DNA from: Candidatus Kerfeldbacteria bacterium
GTDB taxonomy: Bacteria; Patescibacteriota; Patescibacteriia; SBBC01; CAIJZX01
Direction: 5' to 3'
Length of the DNA stretch: 64,000 nt
Assembly (NCBI GenBank): GCA_903825245.1
Contig: CAIJZX010000014.1
Location: forward strand, 1,655-65,654
Translations under genes and position numbers: made by a program
Notes under the pieces: generated by a model
Told to the model about the DNA's origin: nothing
Databases searched by the model: none
The model's input: only the letters and a program-made list of their open reading frames with translations
In this document: positions 4,300 to 45,662 of the stretch, in pieces
Numbering within the stretch: the first letter of the stretch is position 1
How the letters are laid out: every line of letters starts with the position of its first letter

Positions 4300-6111
4300 A
4301 TGGCCGATAATCTCAAAATTGCGTTTAGCCTACCGAAAAAACCCGGCGTCTATCTCTACCACAACGACGAGGACGTTGTGATCTATGTCGGCAAAGCGAT
4401 CAACCTCCGATCGCGGGTTTCGTCATACTTCCGAAAATCGGCCAACCTCCCGCTGGCGAAGCAACTGATGGTCGAACAAATCACCCGCATCGAACACATT
4501 ATTGTTCGTTCGGAAACTGAGGCGCTCCTTCTCGAATCGACGTTAATAAAAAAATATCGTCCGAAATATAATGTTCTGCTCAAGGACGATAAGTTTTTTC
4601 AATACATCAAGATTCACCTCAAGGATCGTTTTCCACAAGTCGAAACCGTGCGCAAAGTCACGATCGACGGTAGTCGCTATTTCGGTCCGTATACCTCCGG
4701 ACTTGCCGTTCGACAAACGATGCGCTTACTGAAACGTTTGTTCCCCTATAAAAGTTGTAATAATGACATAAGCGTTCCCTGTTTTGATTACCAGCTCGGT
4801 CGCTGTCTCGGCCATGACGTTGATCCCAGCAACGAACAGCGGTACCGCGAGGTGATAAAAAAACTCATTACCTTTCTCGAGGGCAACACCGGCACCGTGC
4901 TGACGGAATTGAAAAAAGATATGAAGGTTGCGGCGGCGCGACGTGATTTTGAGAGCGCGGCGCTGTATCGCGATCGCCTCCACGCCTTGCGACACATTAT
5001 CGAACAGCAGACGGTGATCACGCCGCGCCGCGATTCGTTTGATGTTCTCGCCCTCGCCAGGCGCGACGACCTTGCGGCAGTGAATTTATTTCAGGTACGC
5101 CAAGGCAAACTCGTGCAACGCGACCAGTTTATGCTCCAGCACGTCCGCGAACAAAGTGACAGCGATGTTCTGGTGGCGTTCATCGAACAGTACTACAGTC
5201 AATCGACGGTTCATCCGCGGCTCATTATTACACCAGTAACGTTGCCAACCGACAGCGGCAACGGCTTGCAACTCAACATCGTTCGCGCTCAGCGCGGATT
5301 AAAGAAAAAATTAGTCAGCATGGGTACGGAAAACGCCGAAGATTATTTGCGGCGCGAACAGGAACGGTGGATGACGGAAGAATCGAAAGCAAAACTCGGA
5401 CTTGAGGAATTAGCGCGCGCGTTGCGATTAGATGAACCGCCGAAAAGGATTGAAATGTACGATATTTCGCATTTCCAGAGTACCAACGTCGTCGGTTCGA
5501 TGGTGGTGTTCGAAAACGGCCTACCAAAAAAATCTGATTACCGAAAATTCACTATTCGCGACACCACGATTCCTGACGATCAACACCGATTAGCCGAGGT
5601 GGTACGACGAAGATTTAGCCACCACACTCATAATGAAGATGAATCGGCCCCCTCCTCAGCGAGGAGGGGTGTAGGGGTGGTCAACGACGCATGGCCCACG
5701 CCCGACCTTCTCCTCCTCGACGGCGGCAAAGGCCAACTCTCTGTCGTCACGAAGAATGTGCCGGGATTACTGCAACATATTCGCGTCGCCGCATTAGCTA
5801 AGGAAAATGAAGAGCTCTTTGTGCCCGGAAAATCATCGCCGATTCGCCTACCGGAAGGATCACAGGAGCTTTTTCTCATCCAACGGATTCGCGATGAAGC
5901 CCATCGATTTGCTATCGGCTTCTATCGGAAAAAACATCGTCGCGAAACAACGAAATCAATTCTCGATGAAATCCCCGGCCTCGGTGCGAAGCAACGACAG
6001 GCTCTCCTCAAAACATTCGGTACGCTCGATGGTATTCGCACGGCTGATGAAGAGCAGATTGCAGAAATTGTCGGAGGTCGATTGGCCAAAACGATTCTAG
6101 CGAGAATATAA
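4300..6111 (+). CDS. uvrC: Excinuclease ABC subunit C
   Basis: N-terminal GIY-YIG motifs (VYLYHNDEDVVIYVGKAINLRSRV), the conserved WPTPDLLLLDGGKGQL motif and a C-terminal HhH region. An extended -10 (TGtTATACT, 4282-4290) ends 9 nt before the ATG, which suggests a leaderless mRNA. Confidence 0.92.
   Translation: MADNLKIAFSLPKKPGVYLYHNDEDVVIYVGKAINLRSRVSSYFRKSANLPLAKQLMVEQITRIEHIIVRSETEALLLESTLIKKYRPKYNVLLKDDKFFQYIKIHLKDRFPQVETVRKVTIDGSRYFGPYTSGLAVRQTMRLLKRLFPYKSCNNDISVPCFDYQLGRCLGHDVDPSNEQRYREVIKKLITFLEGNTGTVLTELKKDMKVAAARRDFESAALYRDRLHALRHIIEQQTVITPRRDSFDVLALARRDDLAAVNLFQVRQGKLVQRDQFMLQHVREQSDSDVLVAFIEQYYSQSTVHPRLIITPVTLPTDSGNGLQLNIVRAQRGLKKKLVSMGTENAEDYLRREQERWMTEESKAKLGLEELARALRLDEPPKRIEMYDISHFQSTNVVGSMVVFENGLPKKSDYRKFTIRDTTIPDDQHRLAEVVRRRFSHHTHNEDESAPSSARRGVGVVNDAWPTPDLLLLDGGKGQLSVVTKNVPGLLQHIRVAALAKENEELFVPGKSSPIRLPEGSQELFLIQRIRDEAHRFAIGFYRKKHRRETTKSILDEIPGLGAKQRQALLKTFGTLDGIRTADEEQIAEIVGGRLAKTILARI
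5646..5680. repeat. GA-rich palindromic element (GGCCCCCTCCTC-AGC-GAGGAGGGGT-GTAGGGG) inserted in-frame inside uvrC
   Basis: Perfect 9-bp stem CCCCTCCTC/GAGGAGGGG at 5649-5669. The same ~38-nt element recurs in intergenic DNA at 27294-27335 and, in extended form, at 32708-32803. Within uvrC it encodes ...ESAPSSARRGVGVV... just before the conserved WPTPDLLLLDGG motif. Confidence 0.7.
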
Positions 6112-6451
6112 AAAACTGCCCTATGTCATCTGGTACGGTGGGGCATCAGAAGAATATGACGGTGGGATCTGGTAGTCCGGATCAAGCGGTGGATACGGAG
6201 TCGCATCGACGGTGTGATGAACATGGAGGTGCACACCCAGCCAAAGAACAATGTAGAATAGCCAGAACACGCACCAGATATCGAGACGATCGCCATGGGT
6301 GCCACGCATGTGATGTCTCCTGTTGAAGGTACTGTCGTGGTGCATAGCGTCCCACAAGTAAAAACTTTCCACATCGTTACAGGGCTTAAGTAACTCGGGT
6401 TGACGGATAGTGATCGACATGGTACAGTAGCACAGCAATAATTTTTTCCAT

Positions 6452-6679
6452 ATGCCCACTTGGTTGAAACACATCCTGCCTGCCGTTCAAATCGGCTTGT
6501 CTGTCGTCGTCATTATTCTCATTCTCGTCCAAAGTAAAGGTTCTGGACTTTCCGGTGTTTTCGGCGGTGAGGGAAATGTCTACCAAACAAAGCGCGGCGC
6601 AGAAAAAGTTATCTTCATCGCCACCATTGTTTTCCTCATTCTCTTCTTCGGAGTGGCCTTTTTGAATGCCTACCGATAA
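6452..6679 (+). CDS. secG: Preprotein translocase subunit SecG
   Basis: The 75-aa product MPTWLKHILPAVQIGLSVVVIILILVQSKGSGLSGVFGGEGNVYQTKRGAEKVIFIATIVFLILFFGVAFL matches the SecG pattern of a TM helix, Q-x-GKG-x-GLS-x-FGG, a (T/S)xRG(A/S)E segment and a second TM helix. Confidence 0.75.
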   Translation: MPTWLKHILPAVQIGLSVVVIILILVQSKGSGLSGVFGGEGNVYQTKRGAEKVIFIATIVFLILFFGVAFLNAYR

Positions 6680-8480
6680 TCTACAACCCCCGCAGCAGCG
6701 GTGGTTCACGCGTCTCCTCAAACGACGGCAACCGAAGACCGCTTCGGCTACATTAGCGCACAATGATGACCGCGCCTTGGTATTAAGTTTGTCGCCAAAA
6801 CGTATTCCGTCACGAAAGCAGCTTCAGTATTTACCGCGGGTATTAACCACACGAGACCGTAACTGGATTCGTTCCTGCGTCATACTGATTATTGCTAGTA
6901 TCCTGACGCTAATCGGTCACACAATATACAAACACGTGGTTATTATTCCTGCCGATGGCGGAACGCTGAATGAAGGCATCGTCGGTACACCACAGTATAT
7001 CAATCCGGTTCTCGCCCGCCCATATACAGCTGATGCGGAATTAACACATCTCGTGTTTCGTGGATTGATGAAAGTGAATGACCAGCTAGCCGTCGTGCCA
7101 GACTTGGTTTCATCCTTAACGGTCAGCGCTGACGGCAAAGTTTACACCGCCATCCTCCGTTCAAATATGCAATGGTCAGACGGAACAGCGCTTACCGCTG
7201 ACGATGTGCAATATACCTACGAGACCATTGCCGATGCTTCCTACCAAAGTCCATTACTGAGTGTCTTTAAAAATGTAAAAGTCACCACGACCGACAAACA
7301 CACGGTCGTCTTCACGTTACCGGCTCCATTATCATCATTTCCGGCATCATTAACACTTGGCATTTTGCCGAAACAAGATTGGCAGGATCAAAGTGCCCAA
7401 GCCTTTCCCCTCGCCGAACTGAACGTTAAGCCGATTGGTAACGGCCCGTACAAATTCCAAAGCGTCACTAAGGACCGCAATGGCAATATTAAGGCCTATA
7501 CCTTCACACGTAACAAATATTACAACGGTGCAAAACCGCACATTGCCAAAATTACTGTTAAGGTTTATTCCGATGAAGCAAGCGCGGTCGATGCCTTAAA
7601 ATCAGATGCCGTTGATTCACTCGGTGGAATTGATTCAACATCGATAGCGGCAGTAAAAAAGTATCGCCAAATTTCCACCTTCGACCTCTCACAATTAACC
7701 GGCGTCTTCTTTAACCAAAAAACCAGCATCATCCTCAAAGCCGCAGAGGTGCGGCAAGCGTTAGCCATGACCGTCGACCGCGCGGCGCTCATCAAAACCT
7801 CCGACAACAATGTTGGCGCGCCGGCGAACGGGCCGCTTCTCTCGGGTCAACCTGGATTCAGTACGCTGGCGCGACATATCGACCTCAATGTGGCACAAGC
7901 CACAGCGCTTCTCGATCAAAATGGTTGGAAGGTCGGCACCACCGGCATTCGCCAAAAAGGCGGCCGTGATCTCGCGTTTACCTTAACCACCGTCAACGAC
8001 CCAAGTTACGTCGCCATGGCACAGGCGTTGGCCAAGTCGTGGCTCGCTATCGGTGCGAAAGTCGATGTTAAAACGGTCGATGTCGATCGCATCATGAAAG
8101 ACGCAATCCAACCCCGCCAATACGACGCCTTGCTGTACGGCGAACTAACCGACGCCGCGGCCGACATGTATCCGCTGTGGGATTCATCGCAGCAGCAAGA
8201 TCCAGGATTTGCTTTAGCGATCGCGACGCTGAAAAATGCTGATACCGATCTCGAAAAAGCCCGCGCCACCACCGACCCGAATGCCTATGCGGCCGACCTC
8301 CTCGATTTCCAAAATATTTTCGCCGACAGCGTCCCCGCTATTATCATCAGCCAAACGCAATACGTCTACGCCCACGAAAAAAATCTCCGCGGGTTCACCA
8401 CCGATCGGTTGGTAGCGCCGATGAACCGCTTTGACGATATTTCGAGTTGGTACACGAACACCACCTGGAGCTGGAAATAG
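6666..8480 (+). CDS. Extracellular solute-binding protein, family 5 (OppA/DppA-like), membrane-anchored
   Basis: An N-terminal TM anchor (WIRSCVILIIASILTLIG) followed by a ~520-aa domain with the characteristic SBP_bac_5 order (QYINPVLARPYTADAELTHLVFRGLMK...NGPYKFQS...). It overlaps the secG stop by 14 nt. Confidence 0.75.
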   Translation: MPTDNLQPPQQRWFTRLLKRRQPKTASATLAHNDDRALVLSLSPKRIPSRKQLQYLPRVLTTRDRNWIRSCVILIIASILTLIGHTIYKHVVIIPADGGTLNEGIVGTPQYINPVLARPYTADAELTHLVFRGLMKVNDQLAVVPDLVSSLTVSADGKVYTAILRSNMQWSDGTALTADDVQYTYETIADASYQSPLLSVFKNVKVTTTDKHTVVFTLPAPLSSFPASLTLGILPKQDWQDQSAQAFPLAELNVKPIGNGPYKFQSVTKDRNGNIKAYTFTRNKYYNGAKPHIAKITVKVYSDEASAVDALKSDAVDSLGGIDSTSIAAVKKYRQISTFDLSQLTGVFFNQKTSIILKAAEVRQALAMTVDRAALIKTSDNNVGAPANGPLLSGQPGFSTLARHIDLNVAQATALLDQNGWKVGTTGIRQKGGRDLAFTLTTVNDPSYVAMAQALAKSWLAIGAKVDVKTVDVDRIMKDAIQPRQYDALLYGELTDAAADMYPLWDSSQQQDPGFALAIATLKNADTDLEKARATTDPNAYAADLLDFQNIFADSVPAIIISQTQYVYAHEKNLRGFTTDRLVAPMNRFDDISSWYTNTTWSWK

Positions 8481-25811: not shown

Positions 25812-26891
25812 ATGTCCTTCCAAATCGGAATTGTCGGCCTCCCGAACGTCGGAAAATCTTCCCTCTTTCAAGTCCTGACGAAGAAACAAGTTGATACATC
25901 TAACTATCCGTTCGCGACAATCGATCCAAACGTGGGCGTCGTGGCCGTACCTGACGAACGACTTGATGTTCTGACGAAAATGGAACATTCGGCCAAGACC
26001 ATCGCCACCACCATTGAATTCGTCGACATTGCCGGATTGGTGAAAAACGCACACAAAGGAGAAGGACTCGGCAATAAGTTTCTCGCCAATATTCGTGAAG
26101 TGGACGCTATAGCTGAGGTTGTCCGTGCGTTTGAAGATGATAATGTCATCCACGTCGCCGGAAAGGTTGATCCGGCCTCGGACACGGCCACGATTGACAT
26201 CGAATTAGCTATGGCTGACTTGAGCACCGTTGAAAAACGCGTTGATGCCCTCTCGAAACAGAAGAAGGCCGGGTTGAATAAGCAACAAGAACTTGAACTC
26301 GGATTGATGGAAAAAATTCAGGCACATCTCGCCGACGGTAAACCAGTTCGAGATTTTGCCATGACTGACGACGATAAATTGCTCATCAAATCATACAATC
26401 TGCTGACCAGTAAACCCTTACTCTACATTCTCAACGTCAGTGAAGCGCAAGTTGCCACCGCTAACCCGGAAACCTACGGCTTACCGGTAGATCGTACGGT
26501 TGTCATCGCGGTGAAAGTTGAGCAGGAGCTGGCAGGATTAAGTGCCGAGGATACAACGGCGTATTTGAAAGAACTCGGACTCAGTGCCTCCGGTCTCGAC
26601 CGACTTATCCAAGCCGCCTACCGTGCCCTCGGGCTCATCACCTTCCTCACCACCGGCGCCGATGAAACGCGCGCTTGGACAACGACCATCGGTACACCGG
26701 CACCAAAGGCGGCGGCAGTTATTCACACCGATTTTGAAAAGCACTTTATCCGAGCAGAGATTGTATCCTACGCCGACCTTGTAGCCGCCGGATCATGGGA
26801 AGCGACAAAAGCTTCGGGGAAGCTCCGGATTGAAGGAAAAACCTATATTGTCCAAGACGGCGACGTCGTTTTCTTCCGAGTTAACGTATAG
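25812..26891 (+). CDS. ychF: Ribosome-binding ATPase YchF
   Basis: G1 motif GIVGLPNVGKSS, followed by NYPFATIDPNVGVV, a coiled-coil insert and a C-terminal TGS domain. Confidence 0.9.
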   Translation: MSFQIGIVGLPNVGKSSLFQVLTKKQVDTSNYPFATIDPNVGVVAVPDERLDVLTKMEHSAKTIATTIEFVDIAGLVKNAHKGEGLGNKFLANIREVDAIAEVVRAFEDDNVIHVAGKVDPASDTATIDIELAMADLSTVEKRVDALSKQKKAGLNKQQELELGLMEKIQAHLADGKPVRDFAMTDDDKLLIKSYNLLTSKPLLYILNVSEAQVATANPETYGLPVDRTVVIAVKVEQELAGLSAEDTTAYLKELGLSASGLDRLIQAAYRALGLITFLTTGADETRAWTTTIGTPAPKAAAVIHTDFEKHFIRAEIVSYADLVAAGSWEATKASGKLRIEGKTYIVQDGDVVFFRVNV

Positions 26892-27254: not shown

Positions 27255-27293
27255 TTATACGTCATCTTTATCAGGCGAGAGAATCGTTAATTC

Positions 27294-27335
27294 GGCCCCC
27301 TCCTCAAGTGAGGAGGGGTAAGGGGAGGTGAAAAA
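27294..27335. repeat. GA-rich palindromic element GGCCCCCTCCTC-AAGT-GAGGAGGGGT-AAGGGGAGGTG
   Basis: Same family as the copy inside uvrC (5646-5680) and the extended copy at 32708-32803. This one is intergenic, between convergent genes. Confidence 0.7.
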
Positions 27336-27382: not shown

Positions 27383-28594
27383 TTACGCCACTCGCCACAT
27401 CCGAACCTGTCGACGAACACGAGCATCATCGCGAGCGTAGGTCAGGACGTTTGGGGTAGTAATATGCAGTTTTACCGCCGATGCTTCTGACAACATTGGA
27501 AGTTTTTCAAAACCAAGATTGAGGATTGCCTGTTCAATATCAATCGTCACCGATTCTTCACCGGCAAGAAACTCCGGCCAAATCATCACCACGCGCGCGC
27601 CCGGCTTAAGATGTTTTTTCCACTGCGTAAAACTTTGGAAATACAGCGTGCCGATTTCTTTCGCTTGCGACGCCAGCCAATCGTGCGGTTCATGGCCGCG
27701 CAATGGTTTCCCTAAATACGGCTCCGTCACGATAACGTCCGCTTTCGTCGTTACCTGCCGCGCATCACGCATGGTGATTTCGACATCGGTGCTCAATTCA
27801 GGAAATTCAGAAAATAACCACTTGATGTTTTCCTGGGTTTCTTTCACTGGTCTCGATTCAAGATCGCTGGCTACAATTTTCTTCACGCCCATCAACGCTG
27901 CTTCTTGTACAATCGTCCCCGAACCACAAAACGGATCGAGCAACAAGTCGTCCGGCTTCACTTGAGCGATATTCAACATCATCTGCGCCAACTTCGGCGG
28001 AATCATGCCGCTCTTCGCGTTCGCCGCCGGACGACCGAAATCCCGCAGACCATAGAGTTGGTAATCTTGTACTGCATGTGTCGCGCCGACGATGATTTCA
28101 CTGTCGTTCTTGAAAAAAACAAATTCTTTTCCTTTTTTTATTAGGCCGTTGCGTTGTACTGTCACTGCGGAAAGTTGCTGGTCTTGCGAGGTGACAAATC
28201 GAACCGGCCGATCGGCAGCCACGATTTCTTTTTTTAGGCGCAGAGCGATTTTTTGAATCAACGCGCGGTCGTTTGATGTCCCATTATAGAAACTAACGCC
28301 AAACTCAACGCGGCCGGTTTCGGGAAAATGGCGCTCAATCCACTCCTTCGTCAACTGTTCGTGCAAGGTTTTCGAAACTGATTCTGGCACCGGCCAGTGT
28401 TCAACAACCTGAACCTGCTTAATACTGCCACCTAACCGATTTAATATGCGCTCGGGAAGTGGTTGTTCATGGCGAACAACCGCACCAGCCTCTGACAACG
28501 CCATTACCTCGCCCGACCACAGCGGCGCACGAGCCTCGAGTTCGGCCACGGAAAACTCCGGTTCGCGACCGAGGATAAATAATGTCTCTTCCAT
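27383..28594 (-). CDS. SAM-dependent RNA methyltransferase with an N-terminal THUMP-like domain (Trm11/TrmN/RlmL-like, putative m2G methylase)
   Basis: SAM motif I LLDPFCGSGTIVQEA, a downstream D-L-E and a TEPPYG-like segment (TEPYLGKP), plus a ~150-aa N-terminal RNA-binding region. A TATACT hexamer lies 10 nt upstream of the ATG, which suggests a leaderless mRNA. Confidence 0.7.
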   Translation of the reverse strand: MEETLFILGREPEFSVAELEARAPLWSGEVMALSEAGAVVRHEQPLPERILNRLGGSIKQVQVVEHWPVPESVSKTLHEQLTKEWIERHFPETGRVEFGVSFYNGTSNDRALIQKIALRLKKEIVAADRPVRFVTSQDQQLSAVTVQRNGLIKKGKEFVFFKNDSEIIVGATHAVQDYQLYGLRDFGRPAANAKSGMIPPKLAQMMLNIAQVKPDDLLLDPFCGSGTIVQEAALMGVKKIVASDLESRPVKETQENIKWLFSEFPELSTDVEITMRDARQVTTKADVIVTEPYLGKPLRGHEPHDWLASQAKEIGTLYFQSFTQWKKHLKPGARVVMIWPEFLAGEESVTIDIEQAILNLGFEKLPMLSEASAVKLHITTPNVLTYARDDARVRRQVRMWRVA

Positions 28595-30700: not shown

Positions 30701-30720
30701 ACGTTAAAATCAAAAAATCA

Positions 30721-30749
30721 TTGACAAAAACGTGTTTTTCTGATATACT
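30721..30749 (+). promoter_or_regulatory. Consensus promoter TTGACA-N17-TATACT
   Basis: Hexamers at 30721-30726 and 30744-30749. It drives the hypothetical gene at 30797. Confidence 0.5.
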
Positions 30750-30796
30750 AGTATTGTTCTTAAATTAATTTGAGGAATTCACTAACCGCAAACCAT

Positions 30797-31475: not shown

Positions 31476-32567
31476 TTATTCCGCCTTCTCTTCCGCCGGT
31501 TCGTCAGCAACCGCCGCCGGTTTTGTTCCAGCATCATCTTCCGCTTGGCGGTCTTTCGCTACTTCAAGAACCTTCTTCCGAAGCTCATCGATAATTTTTG
31601 GATTATCTTGCAAATATTGCTTCGAGGCTTCGCGGCCAACGCCGAATTTAATTTCACCGTAGGAAACGGTGTTACCGGATTTCGTCAGCACACCGTAGAG
31701 CAACGCCGTGTCGAGTACATCGGATACCAGTGAAATCCCTTGGTTGTACATGATGTCGAACTCAGCTACGCGGAACGGAGCGGCGACTTTGTTCTTCACA
31801 ATTTTCGCCTTGGTGCGGTTGCCGATAATCTTATCACCGAGTTTCAACTGACCAATGCGGCGAACTTCGATACGAACCGAGCAGTAGAATTTCAAGGCTG
31901 TCCCACCAGTCGTCGTTTCCGGATTACCGAAGAAGACGCCGATCTTCATGCGCGTCTGGTTGATGAAGATAACGATGGTTTTCGTCTTTGACACGATGGC
32001 CGTGAGCTTACGCAATGCTTGCGACATCAATCGCGCTTGCAAGCCCATATGTGAATCGCCCATCTCACCTTCAATTTCCGCTTTTGGCGTTAAGGCCGCG
32101 ACCGAGTCAATGACGACGACGTCAACCGCATTCGAGCGCACCAGTGTTTCCACGATTTCTAACGCTTGTTCACCTGAGTCCGGTTGTGAGATTAAGAGTT
32201 CATCAACATTCACGCCAATCTTTCGCGCGTAGCTTGGATCAAGAGCGTGTTCGGCATCAACGAAGGCGGCGGTTCCGCCGGCGCGCTGTACTTCCGCCAC
32301 AATGTGTTGTGCCAACGTGGTTTTTCCCGACGCTTCCGGTCCGAAGATTTCAATCACCCGACCGCGCGGCACGCCGCCCACGCCGAGCGCTAAATCTAAC
32401 GACAAACATCCCGTGGAGACGACATCGACGTCCATCGCCCGGGCTTCACTAAATTTCATAATCGATCCTTCACCGAAACGCTCTCGGATCTGATCGACCG
32501 CCGTTTGCGCGGCCGCATTTTTTATCTTACCGGCGTCAGCACCGGCGCTTTTTTGGCTCTTGGCCAT
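31476..32567 (-). CDS. recA: Recombinase A
   Basis: Walker [14 protein letters not shown], RecA loops L1 and L2, and an acidic C-terminus. 363 aa. Confidence 0.93.
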
Positions 32568-32707
32568 ATGGTTATTCCTTTCTTACCGCACGTCTTCCCA
32601 CAAATCGGGGACAGTCGGGGTTTAATGAATTAATGATACCCGAAGAATAACCGAATGTCAACAAAAGATATCCACAAGCTTTTTATGTCGTAATAATGCG
32701 GTATTTC

Positions 32708-32803
32708 GGCCCTCTCCTTGGATAAGGGGAGGTGAAGGAGGGGTCACAAAACCACCATTTTTTCACCACCTCCCCTTCACCCCTCCTCGGCTGAGGAGGG
32801 GGC
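32708..32803. repeat. Extended (~95-bp) composite GA-rich palindrome of the same family as 5646-5680 and 27294-27335
   Basis: GGCCCTCTCC..AAGGGGAGGTGAAGGAGGGGTCAC-AAAACCACCATTTTTT-CACCACCTCCCCTTCACCCCTCCTC-GGCT-GAGGAGGGGGCC. It contains the hairpin CCCCTCCTC/GAGGAGGGG and lies immediately upstream of the island promoter. Confidence 0.65.
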
Positions 32804-32814
32804 CGGATTGGGTC

Positions 32815-32843
32815 TTGACAAAATCCCCTACTTGTCCTATACT
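32815..32843 (+). promoter_or_regulatory. Consensus promoter TTGACA-N17-TATACT at the head of the small-gene island
   Basis: Hexamers at 32815-32820 and 32838-32843. It is the only consensus-quality + strand promoter found between here and the terminator at 37727-37750. Confidence 0.5.
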
Positions 32844-32907
32844 GTCCAGTTCTTTAAATCCATAAATTACTTCTACTTCGCCCACGTGAGCAGACGCGGC
32901 GCGAACG

Positions 32908-32965
32908 ACGGGTGCGTTGTCTTGATTACTCTGCTCATGTAGTCACTACGACGCACCCGTTTTTC
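32908..32965 (+). promoter_or_regulatory. Attenuator-like leader hairpin (ACGGGTGCG ...35-nt loop... CGCACCCGT followed by TTTTT), with a possible competing pairing TGAGCAGA/TCTGCTCA
   Basis: A 9-bp stem plus T5, lying between the promoter and the first island ORF. TGAGCAGA at 32887-32894 can pair with TCTGCTCA at 32930-32937, which sits inside the terminator loop. Confidence 0.4.
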
Positions 32966-32995
32966 GTTCAGACTTCATTTACCATAGGAGGATGT

Positions 32996-33205
32996 GTGAC
33001 TGCCCTAGAACGTGACACACGTGTGTCCATCATCATCGGAATCGCTGCCCTCTGTAGCATTACCTTGGTGGTTGGCGGAACTATGGCCAAATGTATCGGT
33101 ATGGCCACCAAGTGCGCAGGCGTGGTGATTGGTGGCGGCATCATCGCTGCCGTTTGTGTCGCCGCCTGGGGCTTGTACAGGTCTTATCAGACCACACGAA
33201 AGTAG
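32996..33205 (+). CDS. Island ORF A: small two-TM, Gly-rich membrane peptide (GTG start, 69 aa; longest ORF from 32912)
   Basis: AGGAGG 4 nt before the GTG. Product ...IIIGIAALCSITLVVGGTMAKCIGMATKCAGVVIGGGIIAAVCVAAWGLYRSYQTTRK, with glycine-zipper-like GxxxG motifs. Confidence 0.45.
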   Translation: MTALERDTRVSIIIGIAALCSITLVVGGTMAKCIGMATKCAGVVIGGGIIAAVCVAAWGLYRSYQTTRK

Positions 33206-33364
33206 CTCGTACCATCTACACAGATGTAAAACGTGAGGGAGGGAGAACAGCCACGTTTTCCTCCCACTCTCACATGAATTGATCACTACTGGTCACATCA
33301 TGCGAGAGGTCTGTACCTTGACTCTCAATAAAGAAAATACTGCGTTCCCGTTTTTCGTTCAACG
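33203..33364. repeat. Type-1 inter-ORF unit, copy 1 (~160 bp), starting at the ORF A stop codon
   Basis: TAGCTCGTACCATC...GTGAGGGAGGGAG..CCTCCCACTCTCAC-ATGAATTGATCACTACTGGTCACATCATGCGAGAGGTCTGTACCTTGACTCTCAATAAAGAAAATACTGCGTTCCCGTTTTTCGTTCAACG. The last ~100 nt are identical to copy 3. Confidence 0.75.
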
Positions 33365-33386
33365 TACTTCAACAAAGGGACACCCA

Positions 33387-33557
33387 ATGCTTCGTTCATT
33401 GGCACTGCTGGCTTGGATATGTCTCGCGTCATTAATCCATGACTGCGAAAGATACGTCTGGCGCTGCAAGGTGAAGAGACTTCGGAAGACACTCAATGGT
33501 CGAAATCATGAGTTGGATGTCTTCTTGAAGAATCTCGAGGAATACTACGCGATGTAG
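33387..33557 (+). CDS. Island ORF B: 56-aa protein with a hydrophobic N-terminus (MLRSLALLAWICLASLIHDCERYVWRCKVKRLRK...)
   Basis: The ATG is preceded by AAAGGGA. The longest ORF (33279) begins inside the repeat, and copy 2 of that repeat carries an in-frame stop, so the upstream part is not coding. Confidence 0.45.
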   Translation: MLRSLALLAWICLASLIHDCERYVWRCKVKRLRKTLNGRNHELDVFLKNLEEYYAM

Positions 33558-33714
33558 TTCGTACCGTCGCCACACGACGTAAACAAGTGAGGGAGGGAGA
33601 ACAGCCACGTTTTCCTCCCACTCTCACATGATTTGGTCACCGTTGGTCACATCATGCGAGAGGTCTGTACCTTGACTCTCAATGAAGAAAATAGCACTCC
33701 CGTTTTTCGTTCAA
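33555..33714. repeat. Type-1 inter-ORF unit, copy 2 (a diverged copy)
   Basis: It starts at the ORF B stop (TAGTTCGTACCGTC...) and shows ~85 % identity to copy 1, including the GTGAGGGAGGGAG hairpin and the CCCGTTTTTCGTTCAACG tail. Confidence 0.75.
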
Positions 33715-33748
33715 CGCTGTGAACCCATACAGCCCTTGGAGGATCATC

Positions 33749-33949
33749 ATGGTTCCTCATCCGCTCAAGCTCAAGCGTGATGAACAGTACCTGCAGAGCA
33801 GTATTGCTCTTCTGATCACGGTTGTCCCCATCGTCGTCATCGTGAGGTATGGCTGGCATGGTTATGCCGTATTATACCTGATCGCCCTCATCATCTTCGC
33901 GATCTACAAGTTCGTCAGGGGCATGATGATCAAGGTCCCGAAGAGCTAG
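33749..33949 (+). CDS. Island ORF C: 66-aa two-TM membrane peptide
   Basis: GGAGGA 5 nt before the ATG. MVPHPLKLKRDEQYLQSSIALLITVVPIVVIVRYGWHGYAVLYLIALIIFAIYKFVRGMMIKVPKS. Confidence 0.5.
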   Translation: MVPHPLKLKRDEQYLQSSIALLITVVPIVVIVRYGWHGYAVLYLIALIIFAIYKFVRGMMIKVPKS

Positions 33950-34120
33950 CCCGCACCATCGCCTCGCGATGAAATTTGTGAGGGAGGATTGAGGAGGGTT
34001 TACCTTTTCTCTTCTCCCTCACCCCTCACATGAATTGATCACTACTGGTCACATCATGCGAGAGGTCTGTACCTTGACTCTCAATAAAGAAAATACTGCG
34101 TTCCCGTTTTTCGTTCCACG
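33947..34120. repeat. Type-1 inter-ORF unit, copy 3
   Basis: It starts at the ORF C stop (TAGCCCGCACCATC...). Its 5' hairpin is the variant GTGAGGGAGGATTGAGGAGGG..CTCCCTCAC, and its 3' ~100 nt are identical to copy 1. Confidence 0.75.
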
Positions 34121-34137
34121 CCAATTCGGAGGTCATC

Positions 34138-34308
34138 ATGAGGATGGGCACGTTCAGCACGATCGAGCGAATTATGGAGGACAACGGACTACCGGTTCCA
34201 AGCGGGCGAGGAAATGAGAAGCTCAACGAAATCGCAAGAATCGTCGAGACTCACGAAATGCCTGAGGATGTCCGACAGCGTCTTCGTAACTTGCTCGCCC
34301 TTCGCTGA
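34138..34308 (+). CDS. Island ORF D: 56-aa hydrophilic protein (MRMGTFSTIERIMEDNGLPVPSGRGNEKLNEIARIVETHEMPEDVRQRLRNLLALR)
   Basis: GGAGG 5 nt before the ATG. It is absent from the ORF track only because it is under 60 aa. It ends just before a shortened leader (CAAGTTTTCGTTCAC). Confidence 0.4.
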   Translation: MRMGTFSTIERIMEDNGLPVPSGRGNEKLNEIARIVETHEMPEDVRQRLRNLLALR

Positions 34309-34366
34309 CTCAACGACAAGCAACGCACAAGTTTTCGTTCACACTTCTCGCTACGGAGGTTACACC

Positions 34367-34615
34367 ATGTCGTCCAATCCGATGACGTCGGAGCAGAAGG
34401 TTACGCAACTCCTGGTAGCGCTCGTGTTGACCATTCTTGGTCTGCCGATCGCCGCGCTTGGTGGTTACGGCATCTACTTTGCCTTCACCAATACCGGTGC
34501 CGATCCCGGCCTCGGATCAGCGGCCATTCTGGTCTTCTGCGTCGGCATCGGCGCTATCGGCATCGCCATCAAGCTGACCAACGATGCGCGTCGGGCGAAG
34601 ACGAGTCCGATCTAG
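34367..34615 (+). CDS. Island ORF E: 82-aa two-TM, Gly-rich membrane peptide
   Basis: GGAGG 7 nt before the ATG. MSSNPMTSEQKVTQLLVALVLTILGLPIAALGGYGIYFAFTNTGADPGLGSAAILVFCVGIGAIGIAIKLTNDARRAKTSPI. Confidence 0.5.
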   Translation: MSSNPMTSEQKVTQLLVALVLTILGLPIAALGGYGIYFAFTNTGADPGLGSAAILVFCVGIGAIGIAIKLTNDARRAKTSPI

Positions 34616-34649: not shown

Positions 34650-34704
34650 CTTCTCACTCGACTTGAGAACTAATCCAATAGTTGTCCGGTCAAGTGAGAA
34701 AACC
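34650..34704 (+). repeat. Type-2 leader hairpin, copy 1 (TCTCACTCGAC ...loop... GTCAAGTGAGAAAACC)
   Basis: The stem CACTCGAC/GTCAAGTG contains one G-U pair and is followed by GAGAAAA. The motif family recurs upstream of ORFs at 35251, 36142 and 36738. Confidence 0.65.
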
Positions 34705-34745
34705 AAAGTAACATCGTTCCGTCACAATCAAATCTGGAGGATACA

Positions 34746-36037: not shown

Positions 36038-36084
36038 TCTCACTCGAGCGTTTCACAACCGTGGAACGTTCAAGTGAGAAAACG
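36038..36084 (+). repeat. Type-2 leader hairpin, copy 3 (CTCTCACTCGAGCGTT...AACGTTCAAGTGAGAAAACG)
   Basis: A 14-nt stem with one mismatch and one G-U pair, followed by GTCACAAT as in copy 1. Confidence 0.65.
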
Positions 36085-36141
36085 AAAAGAAATACTGTTC
36101 TGTCACAATTCATCGCTTTACGCGAAGAGAGGAGCAGCATA

Positions 36142-36636: not shown

Positions 36637-36697
36637 TTTCACTCGAGCGTTTCAGCGCCGCCTGCTCGCGGAACTGGAGCGCTCAAGTGAGAAAAGA
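36637..36697 (+). repeat. Type-2 leader hairpin, copy 4 (TTTCACTCGAGCG ...33-nt loop... CGCTCAAGTGAGAAAAG)
   Basis: The stem CACTCGAGCG/CGCTCAAGTG has one G-U pair, and the GAGAAAA tail is the same as in the other copies. Confidence 0.65.
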
Positions 36698-36737
36698 AAA
36701 TTGTAAAAACCGTTCATTCCAACTGAAGGAGAGTGCT

Positions 36738-45451: not shown

Positions 45452-45494
45452 CCTTGTTGTGGGTTTCGACGAAAATACTTTTATTTCTCAGAGT

Positions 45495-45523
45495 ATTATA
45501 TCAAAAAAAGTTGTGTTTGTCAA
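45495..45523 (-). promoter_or_regulatory. Perfect-consensus promoter TTGACA-N17-TATAAT (- strand) for the S8 peptidase gene
   Basis: Read on the reverse strand: TTGACAaacacaactttttttgaTATAAT, about 37 nt upstream of the ATG at 45451. Confidence 0.5.
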
Positions 45524-45596
45524 TGTTTTATATATACAAATACTCCCATGGAAGTTCCATGGGAATACATGTTTCTTCAGTCTGAGCGTCGTGTCC

Positions 45597-45650
45597 TCAC
45601 CAGGGCACCTGCTCCTCCTCTGGTTAGGAGGAGCCCGGAGCTATGCTCCG
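45597..45650 (-). terminator. Tandem hairpins after the rpoC stop (CCGGAGC-ATA-GCTCCGG and GCTCCTCCT-AACCA-GAGGAGGAGC)
   Basis: Two perfect stems on the - strand within 60 nt of the rpoC stop, with weak T-tracts. The second is a CT/GA-rich palindrome related to the dispersed family. Confidence 0.4.
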
Positions 45651-45662
45651 GAAAAGGTGGTC

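Follow-up and report, generated by a model that had tools for sequence, protein, structure and literature searches.

Hairpin modules associated with DUF559 nuclease genes across bacterial phyla, and an in-frame copy in uvrC of Candidatus Kerfeldbacteria

[quoted passage not shown] This element is a short hairpin module at positions 5646-5680, inside the uvrC gene, of a 64,000-nt stretch of Candidatus Kerfeldbacteria DNA (contig CAIJZX010000014.1; G+C about 50%); the whole stretch analysed is referred to as the window. The uvrC copy belongs to a dispersed family, is present or absent at the same site among close relatives, and is conserved at the nucleotide level. The family shows a two-way statistical association with genes for DUF559 proteins, and other genes and other phyla also carry in-frame copies. 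We consider it probable that the copy at 5646-5680 is the solo end of a mobile hairpin element, the full form of which carries a DUF559 gene between inverted modules.

REP sequences are short imperfect palindromes and share several properties with this family, including inverted doublets (REPINs) that fold as long hairpins, solo remnants, and a single small gene flanked by the repeats (Bertels & Rainey; Nunvar et al.; PMC3337134). That gene encodes the REP-associated tyrosine transposase (RAYT), an HUH enzyme, whereas its counterpart here is a DUF559/Vsr-like nuclease of the PD-(D/E)XK type. Moreover, in contrast to REP/REPIN-RAYT systems, the core of the present family is near-identical across phyla, copies lie in frame within genes, and the ribosome-binding site and 3' end of the gene fall within the repeats. 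RPEs (Ogata et al. 2000) are likewise palindromic and are translated in frame in unrelated housekeeping genes, at positions that the protein structure apparently tolerates; described as being about 150 bp long (PMC10969869), they are set apart by that description from the modules of about 40-54 nt and doublets of about 100-125 nt found here. The present family also occurs in many phyla, including the candidate phyla radiation (CPR), and has a candidate enzyme. To our knowledge, RPEs are confined to Rickettsia and have no associated enzyme.

The EDxHD homing genes of the Vsr-like type (Dassa et al. 2009; I-Bth0305I, Taylor et al. 2011) share the DUF559 fold (PDB 3R3P, E 5.5e-5) and are selfish, stand-alone genes located inside host genes or in the gaps between them. 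Their start codon has a hairpin immediately upstream, which has been proposed to mask the ribosome-binding site (PMC2677866). However, these genes are mainly found in phages, exceed 250 aa and have an extra DNA-binding domain, whereas the present family is rare in viral contigs; neither conserved inverted hairpin bounds nor gene-less multicopy derivatives have been described for them. Classical MITEs (Correia, ERIC, RUP, Nezha) are similar in being small, non-coding, multicopy and mostly intergenic, with terminal inverted repeats and occasional in-frame fusions (PMC10969869). In contrast to MITEs, no parent insertion sequence (IS) was seen here, the DUF559 gene is the only gene found between such ends, and each end is itself a hairpin. 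MITEs generally derive from IS elements with DDE transposases and show target-site duplications. We place the element with REPIN- or MITE-like systems, from which it would differ in the class of its enzyme, in the unusual conservation of its core and in insertions that keep the frame, as those of RPEs do. The 16-mers spanning core and tail were not found in the full text of open-access papers and preprints, although prior description elsewhere is possible. Similarly, no description of hairpin-bounded DUF559 cassettes or their gene-less derivatives was found among open-access papers and preprints on DUF559 and Vsr-like nucleases, which is weak evidence of novelty. A cross-phylum hairpin family tied to DUF559 is a more interesting result than the uvrC copy with which the analysis began.

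Modules in the window and at the uvrC junction

The module is a unit of ~40-50 nt in which a G-rich tail, GGGG(T/A)GGT, comes after a 9-bp hairpin (CCCCTCCTC / GAGGAGGGG). The pattern GGCCCCCTCCTC-N(2-6)-GAGGAGGGG has three exact matches in the window, at 5646-5669(+), 27294-27318(+) and 32780-32804(-), each with a spacer of N3-4, and 0 matches in 100 dinucleotide-preserving shuffles of the window. Each match is followed by T-(GTA/AA/GAA)-GGGG(T/A)GGT and preceded by the common left edge (A)ATYC-GGCC, and the 9-bp stem is present in all copies of the module. A degenerate copy lies beside the third match, and the repeat is real for these three good copies and one degenerate copy. Of the seven sites that the first-pass annotation had assigned to a "GA-rich palindrome", those at 5646, 27294 and 32708-32803 belong to the family, whereas those at 33233, 33587, 33978 and 45605 are other hairpins; "GA-rich" is apt for one arm (G/A-rich) but not for the other, which is C/T-rich. 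The features concerned are as follows.

4300..6111, + strand: uvrC, 603 aa, with GIY-YIG, UVR, two RNase H-like and helix-hairpin-helix (HhH) domains
5626..5691, + strand: variable uvrC segment, codons T443-A464, THNEDESAPSSARRGVGVVNDA
5644..5684, + strand: solo module in uvrC, left edge aTC-GGCC, exact match, repeat family D13
5649-5657, 5658-5660 and 5661-5669: stem arm CCCCTCCTC, loop AGC and stem arm GAGGAGGGG of the uvrC module
5670-5682, + strand: tail of the uvrC module, T-GTA-GGGGTGGTC
Peptides of the uvrC insert region: ESAPSSAR, GVGVVNDAWPTPDLLLLDGGK
27292..27335, + strand: solo intergenic module, TC-GGCC-CCCTCCTC-AAGT-GAGGAGGGG-T-AA-GGGGAGGTGAAAAA, repeat families D13 and I1
32707..32745, + strand: degenerate module, left half of a doublet, CGGCC-CTCTCCTT-GGAT-AAGGGGAGG-TGAAGGAGGGGT, read directly
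32758..32806, - strand: well-preserved module, right half of the doublet, CCGGCC-CCCTCCTC-AGCC-GAGGAGGGG-T-GAA-GGGGAGGTGGTGAAAAAA
32707..32806, no strand: gene-less doublet, two modules tail to tail, a near-palindrome of ~100 nt
32661-32633, - strand: promoter-like site facing the recA-like gene 31476-32567
32815-32843, + strand: promoter-like site facing a small-ORF array

The uvrC copy reads GGCC-CCCTCCTC-AGC-GAGGAGGGG-T-GTA-GGGGTGGTC over 5646-5682 and folds as DNA into a 9-bp hairpin (centroid -9.6 kcal/mol; z -1.56 in a context of G/C runs). The solo module at 27292-27335 (-10.2 kcal/mol as DNA, z -2.7) separates the 3' ends of a convergent gene pair, 25812-26891(+) and 27383-28594(-), which appear from their translations to encode a YchF-like GTPase and a methyltransferase-like protein, respectively. 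In the doublet, 37 nt of the well-preserved half are 84% complementary to the copy at 27289 (family I1). Folded as single-stranded DNA (-26.6 kcal/mol, z about -3.2), the doublet has a GGCC/GGCC stem that closes three hairpins, one of them formed by the degenerate module, and each of the two divergent promoter-like sites flanking it has 11/12 consensus matches. The doublet resembles a MITE or REPIN, and its layout is that of the gene-less doublets of other phyla and of the ends of DUF559 cassettes. An Rfam scan of the window returned two tRNAs only, leaving the module without a family at the gathering score, and a scan of eight element-rich loci matched no family. The module was also considered as an intrinsic terminator, a reading rejected because the hairpin is followed by a G-rich tail rather than a T run on either strand; a terminator scan of 32500-34400 did not call the doublet.

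The best database relatives of the window UvrC are from Candidatus Kerfeldbacteria (CPR/Patescibacteria). As first annotated, the copy at 5646 lies in frame within the 603-aa open reading frame (ORF) and is translated as ...ESAPSSARRGVGVV...; the segment 5626-5691 takes the place of DEDG in 585-aa orthologues, a net gain of 54 nt (18 aa). The proposed location in an inter-domain linker has to be revised, for the site is a loop within the C-terminal RNase H-like nuclease domain. The insertion point falls inside the Pfam UvrC_RNaseH_dom (PF08459, residues 373-539), and an AlphaFold model places residues 443-463, with pLDDT below 50, in a loop between a helix (427-442) and a strand (470-474). In the match to T. 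maritima UvrC (2NRT), the insert causes a break at chain residues 82/83, between ...RRYSKH and PLPNLLFVDGG; it lies about 10 residues ahead of the DGG motif. The structural work on T. maritima UvrC reportedly identified the Asp of DGG as catalytic, at the 5'-incision site. The effect of the insert on repair is a question worth asking.

An alignment and neighbour-joining tree of 50 Kerfeldbacteria UvrC proteins, together with the DNA of nine orthologues, bear out the expectation that the insertion would be lineage-specific. A short HH-DEDG-W junction is found in 26/50 proteins, most of them 585 aa long, whereas the window UvrC and 23 others have 6-26 extra residues at exactly the HH/W junction. 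The closest orthologues (P0002-P0004, 84-89% identical) are of the short type and lack the insert; the 615-aa length of P0002 results from a mis-called start codon. At the DNA level, these nearest relatives (loci L128 and L129) provide the empty site, CAT CAT GAC GAA GAC GGC TGG CCG. Insert-bearing taxa are scattered on the tree, with several (the window, P0006, P0008 and P0021) sister to a short, 585-aa form, and at least eight gains or losses were counted by eye.

The first-pass annotation would have regarded the insert as an ordinary linker if relatives carried it without the repeat. Among the orthologues compared as DNA, every P/S/G-rich insert in more distant UvrC proteins contains a hairpin; the insert of L005 is of a different kind and has no such hairpin, and L004 has no insert. 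The core CCCCTCCTC-N3-GAGGAGGGGT is identical in the window, in L001 (79% amino acid identity; junction CT-CCCCTCCTC-TTC-GAGGAGGGGT-TG-GGGGAGGTC) and in L006 (70%; CT-CCCCTCCTC-TCG-GAGGAGGGGT-AT-GGGGAGGAG). In L007, the arms CCCCCCCTC/GAGGGGGGG show a compensatory T>C plus A>G change. The reading frame of the hairpin also differs, giving APSSARRGV in the window and SPPLRGGV in L001, L006 and L007. All ten uvrC variants read at the DNA level nevertheless keep the frame without a stop codon, their translation being inferred. Programmed bypass or splicing of the insert has no support, since the reading frame is open and maintained through all ten variants.

Structural variants of the element differ at this single uvrC site. 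L212 reads CCCCTCCTT-TTG-AAGGAGGGG-C-GGGGGGGAGGTAAAGAAAAA, the hairpin of L211 has tails on both sides (CCACCCCTCCA...GGGGGAGGTGG), and L002 and L210 (50% identity) have a long loop between the arms, with a further hairpin nested inside it in L210. The variants look genome-specific, for the GGCC prefix is present in 3/3 good window copies and CCCTCCT, with three C, in both L002 copies. Intergenic modules of the family also occur in Kerfeldbacteria (L004 5881-5930; L002/L003 15603-15640; L212 34-102), in the case of L004 even though its uvrC has no insert. By these sequence comparisons, the uvrC insert is conserved as nucleotides and not as protein, and the variants point to repeated insertion at this site or to gene conversion from each genome's own copies. 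The frame differences, the compensatory change and the genome-specific variants therefore distinguish the insert from an ordinary linker, and the orthologues support the central claim of the first-pass annotation, that a dispersed REP- or MITE-like hairpin family invaded uvrC in frame.

Two gene calls among these loci may be recorded here. In L001, uvrA is split over 4593-7579 into four ORFs (400, 212, 82 and 250 aa), while L002, L004, L005 and L006 each have a single uvrA ORF of 971-1001 aa; the split gene could be a pseudogene or an assembly error. The element was rejected as the cause of the break, which consists of plain stops or frameshifts with no hairpin. The gene call for P0021, the UvrC orthologue of L006 (10001-12439), gives 812 aa, an excess of about 200 residues over the other orthologues.

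The family across phyla and the DUF559 gene

One representative genome per species was scanned with CCCCTCCTC-N3-4-GAGGAGGGGT-N2-3-GGGG, a pattern of 23 fixed bases for which, by a rough estimate, at most a few chance matches are expected in 596 Gb. At least 120 stretches matched. The isolates among the matches listed belong to Sphingomonas, Novosphingobium, Sphingopyxis, Sphingobium, Hymenobacter, Solirubrum and Raineya, and the metagenome-assembled genomes (MAGs) to Prevotella, Acidobacteriota/Terriglobia, Flavobacteriales, Chloroflexia, Acidimicrobiia, Gammaproteobacteria and many CPR groups, including Portnoy-, Morani-, Woese-, Uhr- and Saccharibacteria. Among these matches, the core and the start of the tail are constant, whereas the loop and the outer flanks are lineage-specific. 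Longer views reveal a common plan of hairpin A, T, GGGGGTGGTG, spacer, CACCACCCC and hairpin C, which is the same tail-to-tail doublet as that at 32707-32806 in the window. The Sphingomonas doublet, for example, is a well-bounded unit of ~125 nt flanked by CTTAAG. Viruses were considered as a cross-phylum vector and set aside, as only 6 of 2.9 million viral contigs contain the pattern. A blastn search of the doublet against plasmids gave no match, though the low-complexity filter may have masked the query.

The edges of the element are short palindromes that vary by lineage: GGCC in the window, CTTAAG in Sphingomonas and AGCT in Hymenobacter. Two Sphingomonas copies have direct CTAAG or CTTAG at their flanks, yet palindromic edges blur the distinction between direct and inverted repeats, so that a duplication is inseparable from an extended inverted repeat. 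As a separate observation, a Flavobacteriales MAG (L022 1300-2100) has three to four complete doublets head to tail at a spacing of 162-241 nt, some with an extra nested hairpin (GCCTGCCGGCAGGC); the element is therefore able to form local arrays.

Real genes other than uvrC also contain in-frame modules or doublets, which makes the insertion in uvrC an example of a behaviour that is general. The following in-frame copies were found among the hairpin loci.

Sphingomonas isoleucyl-tRNA synthetase (IleRS): about 55 extra residues
Parcubacteria RumA-like methyltransferase: in-frame copy
Patescibacteria epimerase: in-frame copy
Threonine-aldolase-like protein (L105): in-frame copy
GT2 glycosyltransferase: in-frame copy

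Beside its hairpin-derived insert, the threonine-aldolase-like ORF of L105 has a second, different in-frame tandem duplication, ELPPTRGENTNGD / ELPPARGENTNGD.

The association with DUF559 was examined in both directions. In the forward test, the ORFs adjoining the 120 listed hairpin loci were clustered by protein, and the only cross-phylum cluster among the matches listed is a protein of ~115-145 aa that belongs to DUF559 (PF04480, E 5e-38); 13 of the 120 loci have its gene no farther than about 200 nt from the hairpin. In the reverse test, 80 metagenome DUF559 loci were picked solely by protein patterns of the domain core (derived from a three-sequence alignment), and CCCCTCCTC-N3-6-GAGGAGGGG, with no more than one mismatch per arm, was sought within 250 nt. 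The hairpin was present in 41/80 loci, on both sides in 14/80, and its density was 1.12 per kb near the DUF559 gene compared with 0.015 per kb elsewhere in the same contigs.

The layout of these cassettes is constant and consists of hairpin A, the tail GGGG(T/A)GGT, 5-15 nt, ATG ... stop, ACCACCCC and hairpin C. The left tail doubles as the DUF559 ribosome-binding site, and many DUF559 C-termini read through the right end (...TTPNPSSEEEG). Some subfamilies have an extra small hairpin nested between core and tail, and others combine different hairpin sequences with the same layout. In Sphingomonas parapaucimobilis plasmid NZ_CP155753.1 (L213 1351-1836), a two-ended DUF559 cassette (protein WP_347093239.1) lies exactly between sufB and sufC of a suf operon; separately, a variant cassette was seen between two carboxylase subunit genes (L214). 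Covariation (T-A, C-G, G-C) is seen at the two apical stem pairs, with pairing kept in 93-100% of the distinct modules of the DUF559 set; the other seven pairs are uninformative because they are fixed by the search pattern.

Members of the large DUF559 family usually bear the annotation "endonuclease domain-containing protein" or are wrongly labelled as very-short-patch repair enzymes. Its profile matches PDB 3HRL (E 2e-32) and, as noted above, 3R3P, the catalytic domain of the homing endonuclease I-Bth0305I. The residues E, D, H and D are invariant in an eight-sequence DUF559 alignment (A2), which agrees with the EDxHD catalytic set (PMC3239194). In a survey of PD-(D/E)XK nucleases, Vsr, DUF559 and I-Bth0305I fell into one clade (PMC3424549), and Vsr-like nucleases have been described as free-standing homing endonucleases whose genes have a hairpin upstream (PMC2677866). 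The DUF559 nuclease is thus plausibly active and of a mobile kind.

Other repeats in the window

The hairpins at 33233, 33587 and 33978 are parts of a tandem array with units of 354-402 nt (family D1), a separate repeat in which each hairpin follows the stop codon of a small ORF. The array spans 32912-34310 in three to four units, each consisting of a small ORF of 56-97 aa, a G-rich/C-rich hairpin (GTGAGGGAGGGAG...CTCCCACTCTCAC) and a conserved stretch to CCCGTTTTTCGTTCA. The small ORFs probably encode membrane proteins and are not obviously alike; the non-coding parts are 79-93% identical. Downstream of this array, a motif of family D4 (...TCAAGTGAGAAAAC/G.AAA), which may be a shared upstream signal, occurs at 34676-34707, 36056-36087 and 36669-36700.

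The hairpin listed at 45605, with arms and loop at 45612-45633, shows only 77% likeness to the core and lacks a tail; it is situated between two large ORFs of the minus strand. As DNA, the region 45600-45660 folds into a double hairpin of high stability (-20.6 kcal/mol, z -5.5), and the adjacent ORFs, of 1291 and 1548 aa, may, to judge by their size, be rpoB and rpoC. A pair of 36-nt inverted repeats at 30715-30750 and 45494-45529 (81% complementary; AAATCATTGACAAAAACGTGTTTTTCTGATATACTA) looks like a strong promoter (TTGACA...TATACT) shared by two distant genes.

Origin of the element and its significance

The full element consists of two inverted modules, placed in the longest form around a DUF559 (Vsr-like nuclease) gene of ~115-145 aa, with the left tail serving as its ribosome-binding site and the right module overlapping the gene end. 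Gene-less doublets (32707-32806) and solo modules (5646, 27294) would be non-autonomous or decayed derivatives, one of which would have landed in, or been copied into, a surface loop of the UvrC C-terminal nuclease domain. The gene would have stayed open because the module length is a multiple of three and contains no stop codon, and the module is now predicted to be translated as a disordered 18-residue loop. We infer that the DUF559 nuclease may recognise hairpin and tail and nick or cut there, whereupon repair or replication would copy the unit. Such copying could be homing-like or transposition-like and would also operate in the genome of the window, where gene-less doublets and solo ends would either ride on the activity of the nuclease or be products of decay. 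Insertions within genes would persist only if the frame is kept and the loop is tolerant. Being one of few tolerated sites in a compact CPR genome, the UvrC loop may have been hit repeatedly, and the scarcity of safe loops in such genomes could explain the recurrence at one site. A bolder proposal, which we advance tentatively, is that DUF559 with hairpin ends represents an unrecognised class of nuclease-driven mobile element, spread over many phyla, with the hairpin and tail as its recognition site, non-autonomous gene-less progeny able to settle in frame in essential genes, and the UvrC loop as a recurrent landing site in Kerfeldbacteria. A recognition site of this kind would explain the near-identity of the module from Sphingomonas to CPR bacteria.

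Several observations weigh against this account. Neither the 64-kb window nor the related Kerfeldbacteria loci, about 150 kb in all, yielded a DUF559 gene, and tblastn with six DUF559 proteins gave chance matches or the hairpin-encoded peptide only; an autonomous partner in this genome would therefore be hypothetical, and the copies may be fossils. About half of the DUF559 loci lack this exact hairpin, several of them having analogous hairpins of other sequence, and many of the supporting genomes are MAGs. Comparison of the filled and empty uvrC sites revealed no clean target-site duplication, and neither a defined cut site nor a target-site duplication was found at the element edges. We know of no transposase among PD-(D/E)XK nucleases of ~115 aa, nor of a transposition chemistry for them, and homing alone leaves the spread to new sites, such as the uvrC codon, unexplained. 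Finally, the window and L001 share a seemingly homologous acidic segment (T-x-N-E/D-D) upstream of the hairpin, and it is therefore possible that, in this sub-clade, a single older insertion was followed by losses and local gene conversion, which fits as well as repeated insertion does.

The alternatives differ in the role that they assign to the DUF559 gene and to the host. In one, the hairpins are REP/REPIN sequences that owe their mobility to a RAYT (an IS200-like tyrosine transposase) from another part of the genome, the connection with DUF559 being coincidental. The layout is alike in its short imperfect palindromes, inverted doublets, decaying singlets and repeat-flanked small gene (PMC3337134). 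However, in a scan confined to the 120 listed hairpin loci, the adjacent ORFs contain no RAYT-like cluster, DUF559 is the only cross-phylum neighbour among the matches listed, and the reverse test is strong. Moreover, REP sequences are generally specific to a species or genus, and 5' GTAG is typical of them, whereas the core here is identical across phyla and GTAG is not a conserved feature. REPs are also mostly extragenic (PMC3337134), in contrast to elements that lie in frame within genes, and taken together this origin has only a very slim chance of being correct. Somewhat less unlikely is that DUF559 is a free-standing homing endonuclease parasitising pre-existing doublets through their spacer, with the doublets spread by slippage, template switching or an unidentified transposase. 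Gene-less doublets do look like intact targets and gene-bearing ones like a split site, Vsr-fold homing endonucleases exist, and the gene is present in only 13/120 of the hairpin loci listed. Nevertheless, the ribosome-binding site and stop codon are built into the two ends in every phylum examined, which points to a long shared evolution as a single unit; beside the listed hairpin loci, no further candidate enzyme was seen, and the cross-phylum identity of the ends is easier to understand as the recognition site of a co-travelling enzyme.

Host-centred explanations turn instead on the uvrC copy. The hairpin could have been co-opted as a cis signal, such as a pause site, an mRNA stabiliser or a protein-binding site coordinating DNA-repair genes (a further copy lies in the recA promoter region), and kept by host selection. 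Its conservation as nucleotides in different frames, the compensatory stem change and the recurrence at the same uvrC codon in lineages sharing only 50-89% identity would all fit such a role, as would the Shine-Dalgarno-like tail (GGAGGT) and the position of a doublet between the recA-like gene and its neighbour. The chance of this is small, however, for the closest relatives and about half of Kerfeldbacteria lack the insert, the same module occurs in unrelated genes of other phyla, and the only gene class common to any of the four copies in 64 kb is that of two repair genes, possibly a chance result. That the insert is an ordinary, lineage-specific, low-complexity linker whose likeness to intergenic hairpins is fortuitous has practically no probability. 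Loop length does vary in many lineages, and the inserts of the P0018-P0026 clade and of L005 have no such hairpin, but this explanation is refuted by a 24-base exact match to two intergenic copies where 0 is expected, by an identical core in a different frame in orthologues, and by the same 23-base pattern in at least 120 contigs elsewhere. A mobile hairpin element that in its full form carries DUF559 is thus the reading that we prefer.

The fixed hairpin ends and gene-less derivatives give DUF559, a domain of unknown function, a testable role as a selfish nuclease with a defined DNA substrate. If this is true, a PD-(D/E)XK nuclease would be a second enzyme class for repeat systems of the REP/RAYT type. 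The near-identity of a 23-base core across phyla is itself unusual for bacterial repeats. The modules also matter for annotation, as they create spurious P/S/G/R-rich segments and N- or C-terminal extensions and can break assemblies. More broadly, the phenomenon known from RPEs, in which selfish DNA is translated inside housekeeping proteins, is extended by this family to the CPR and to several other phyla.

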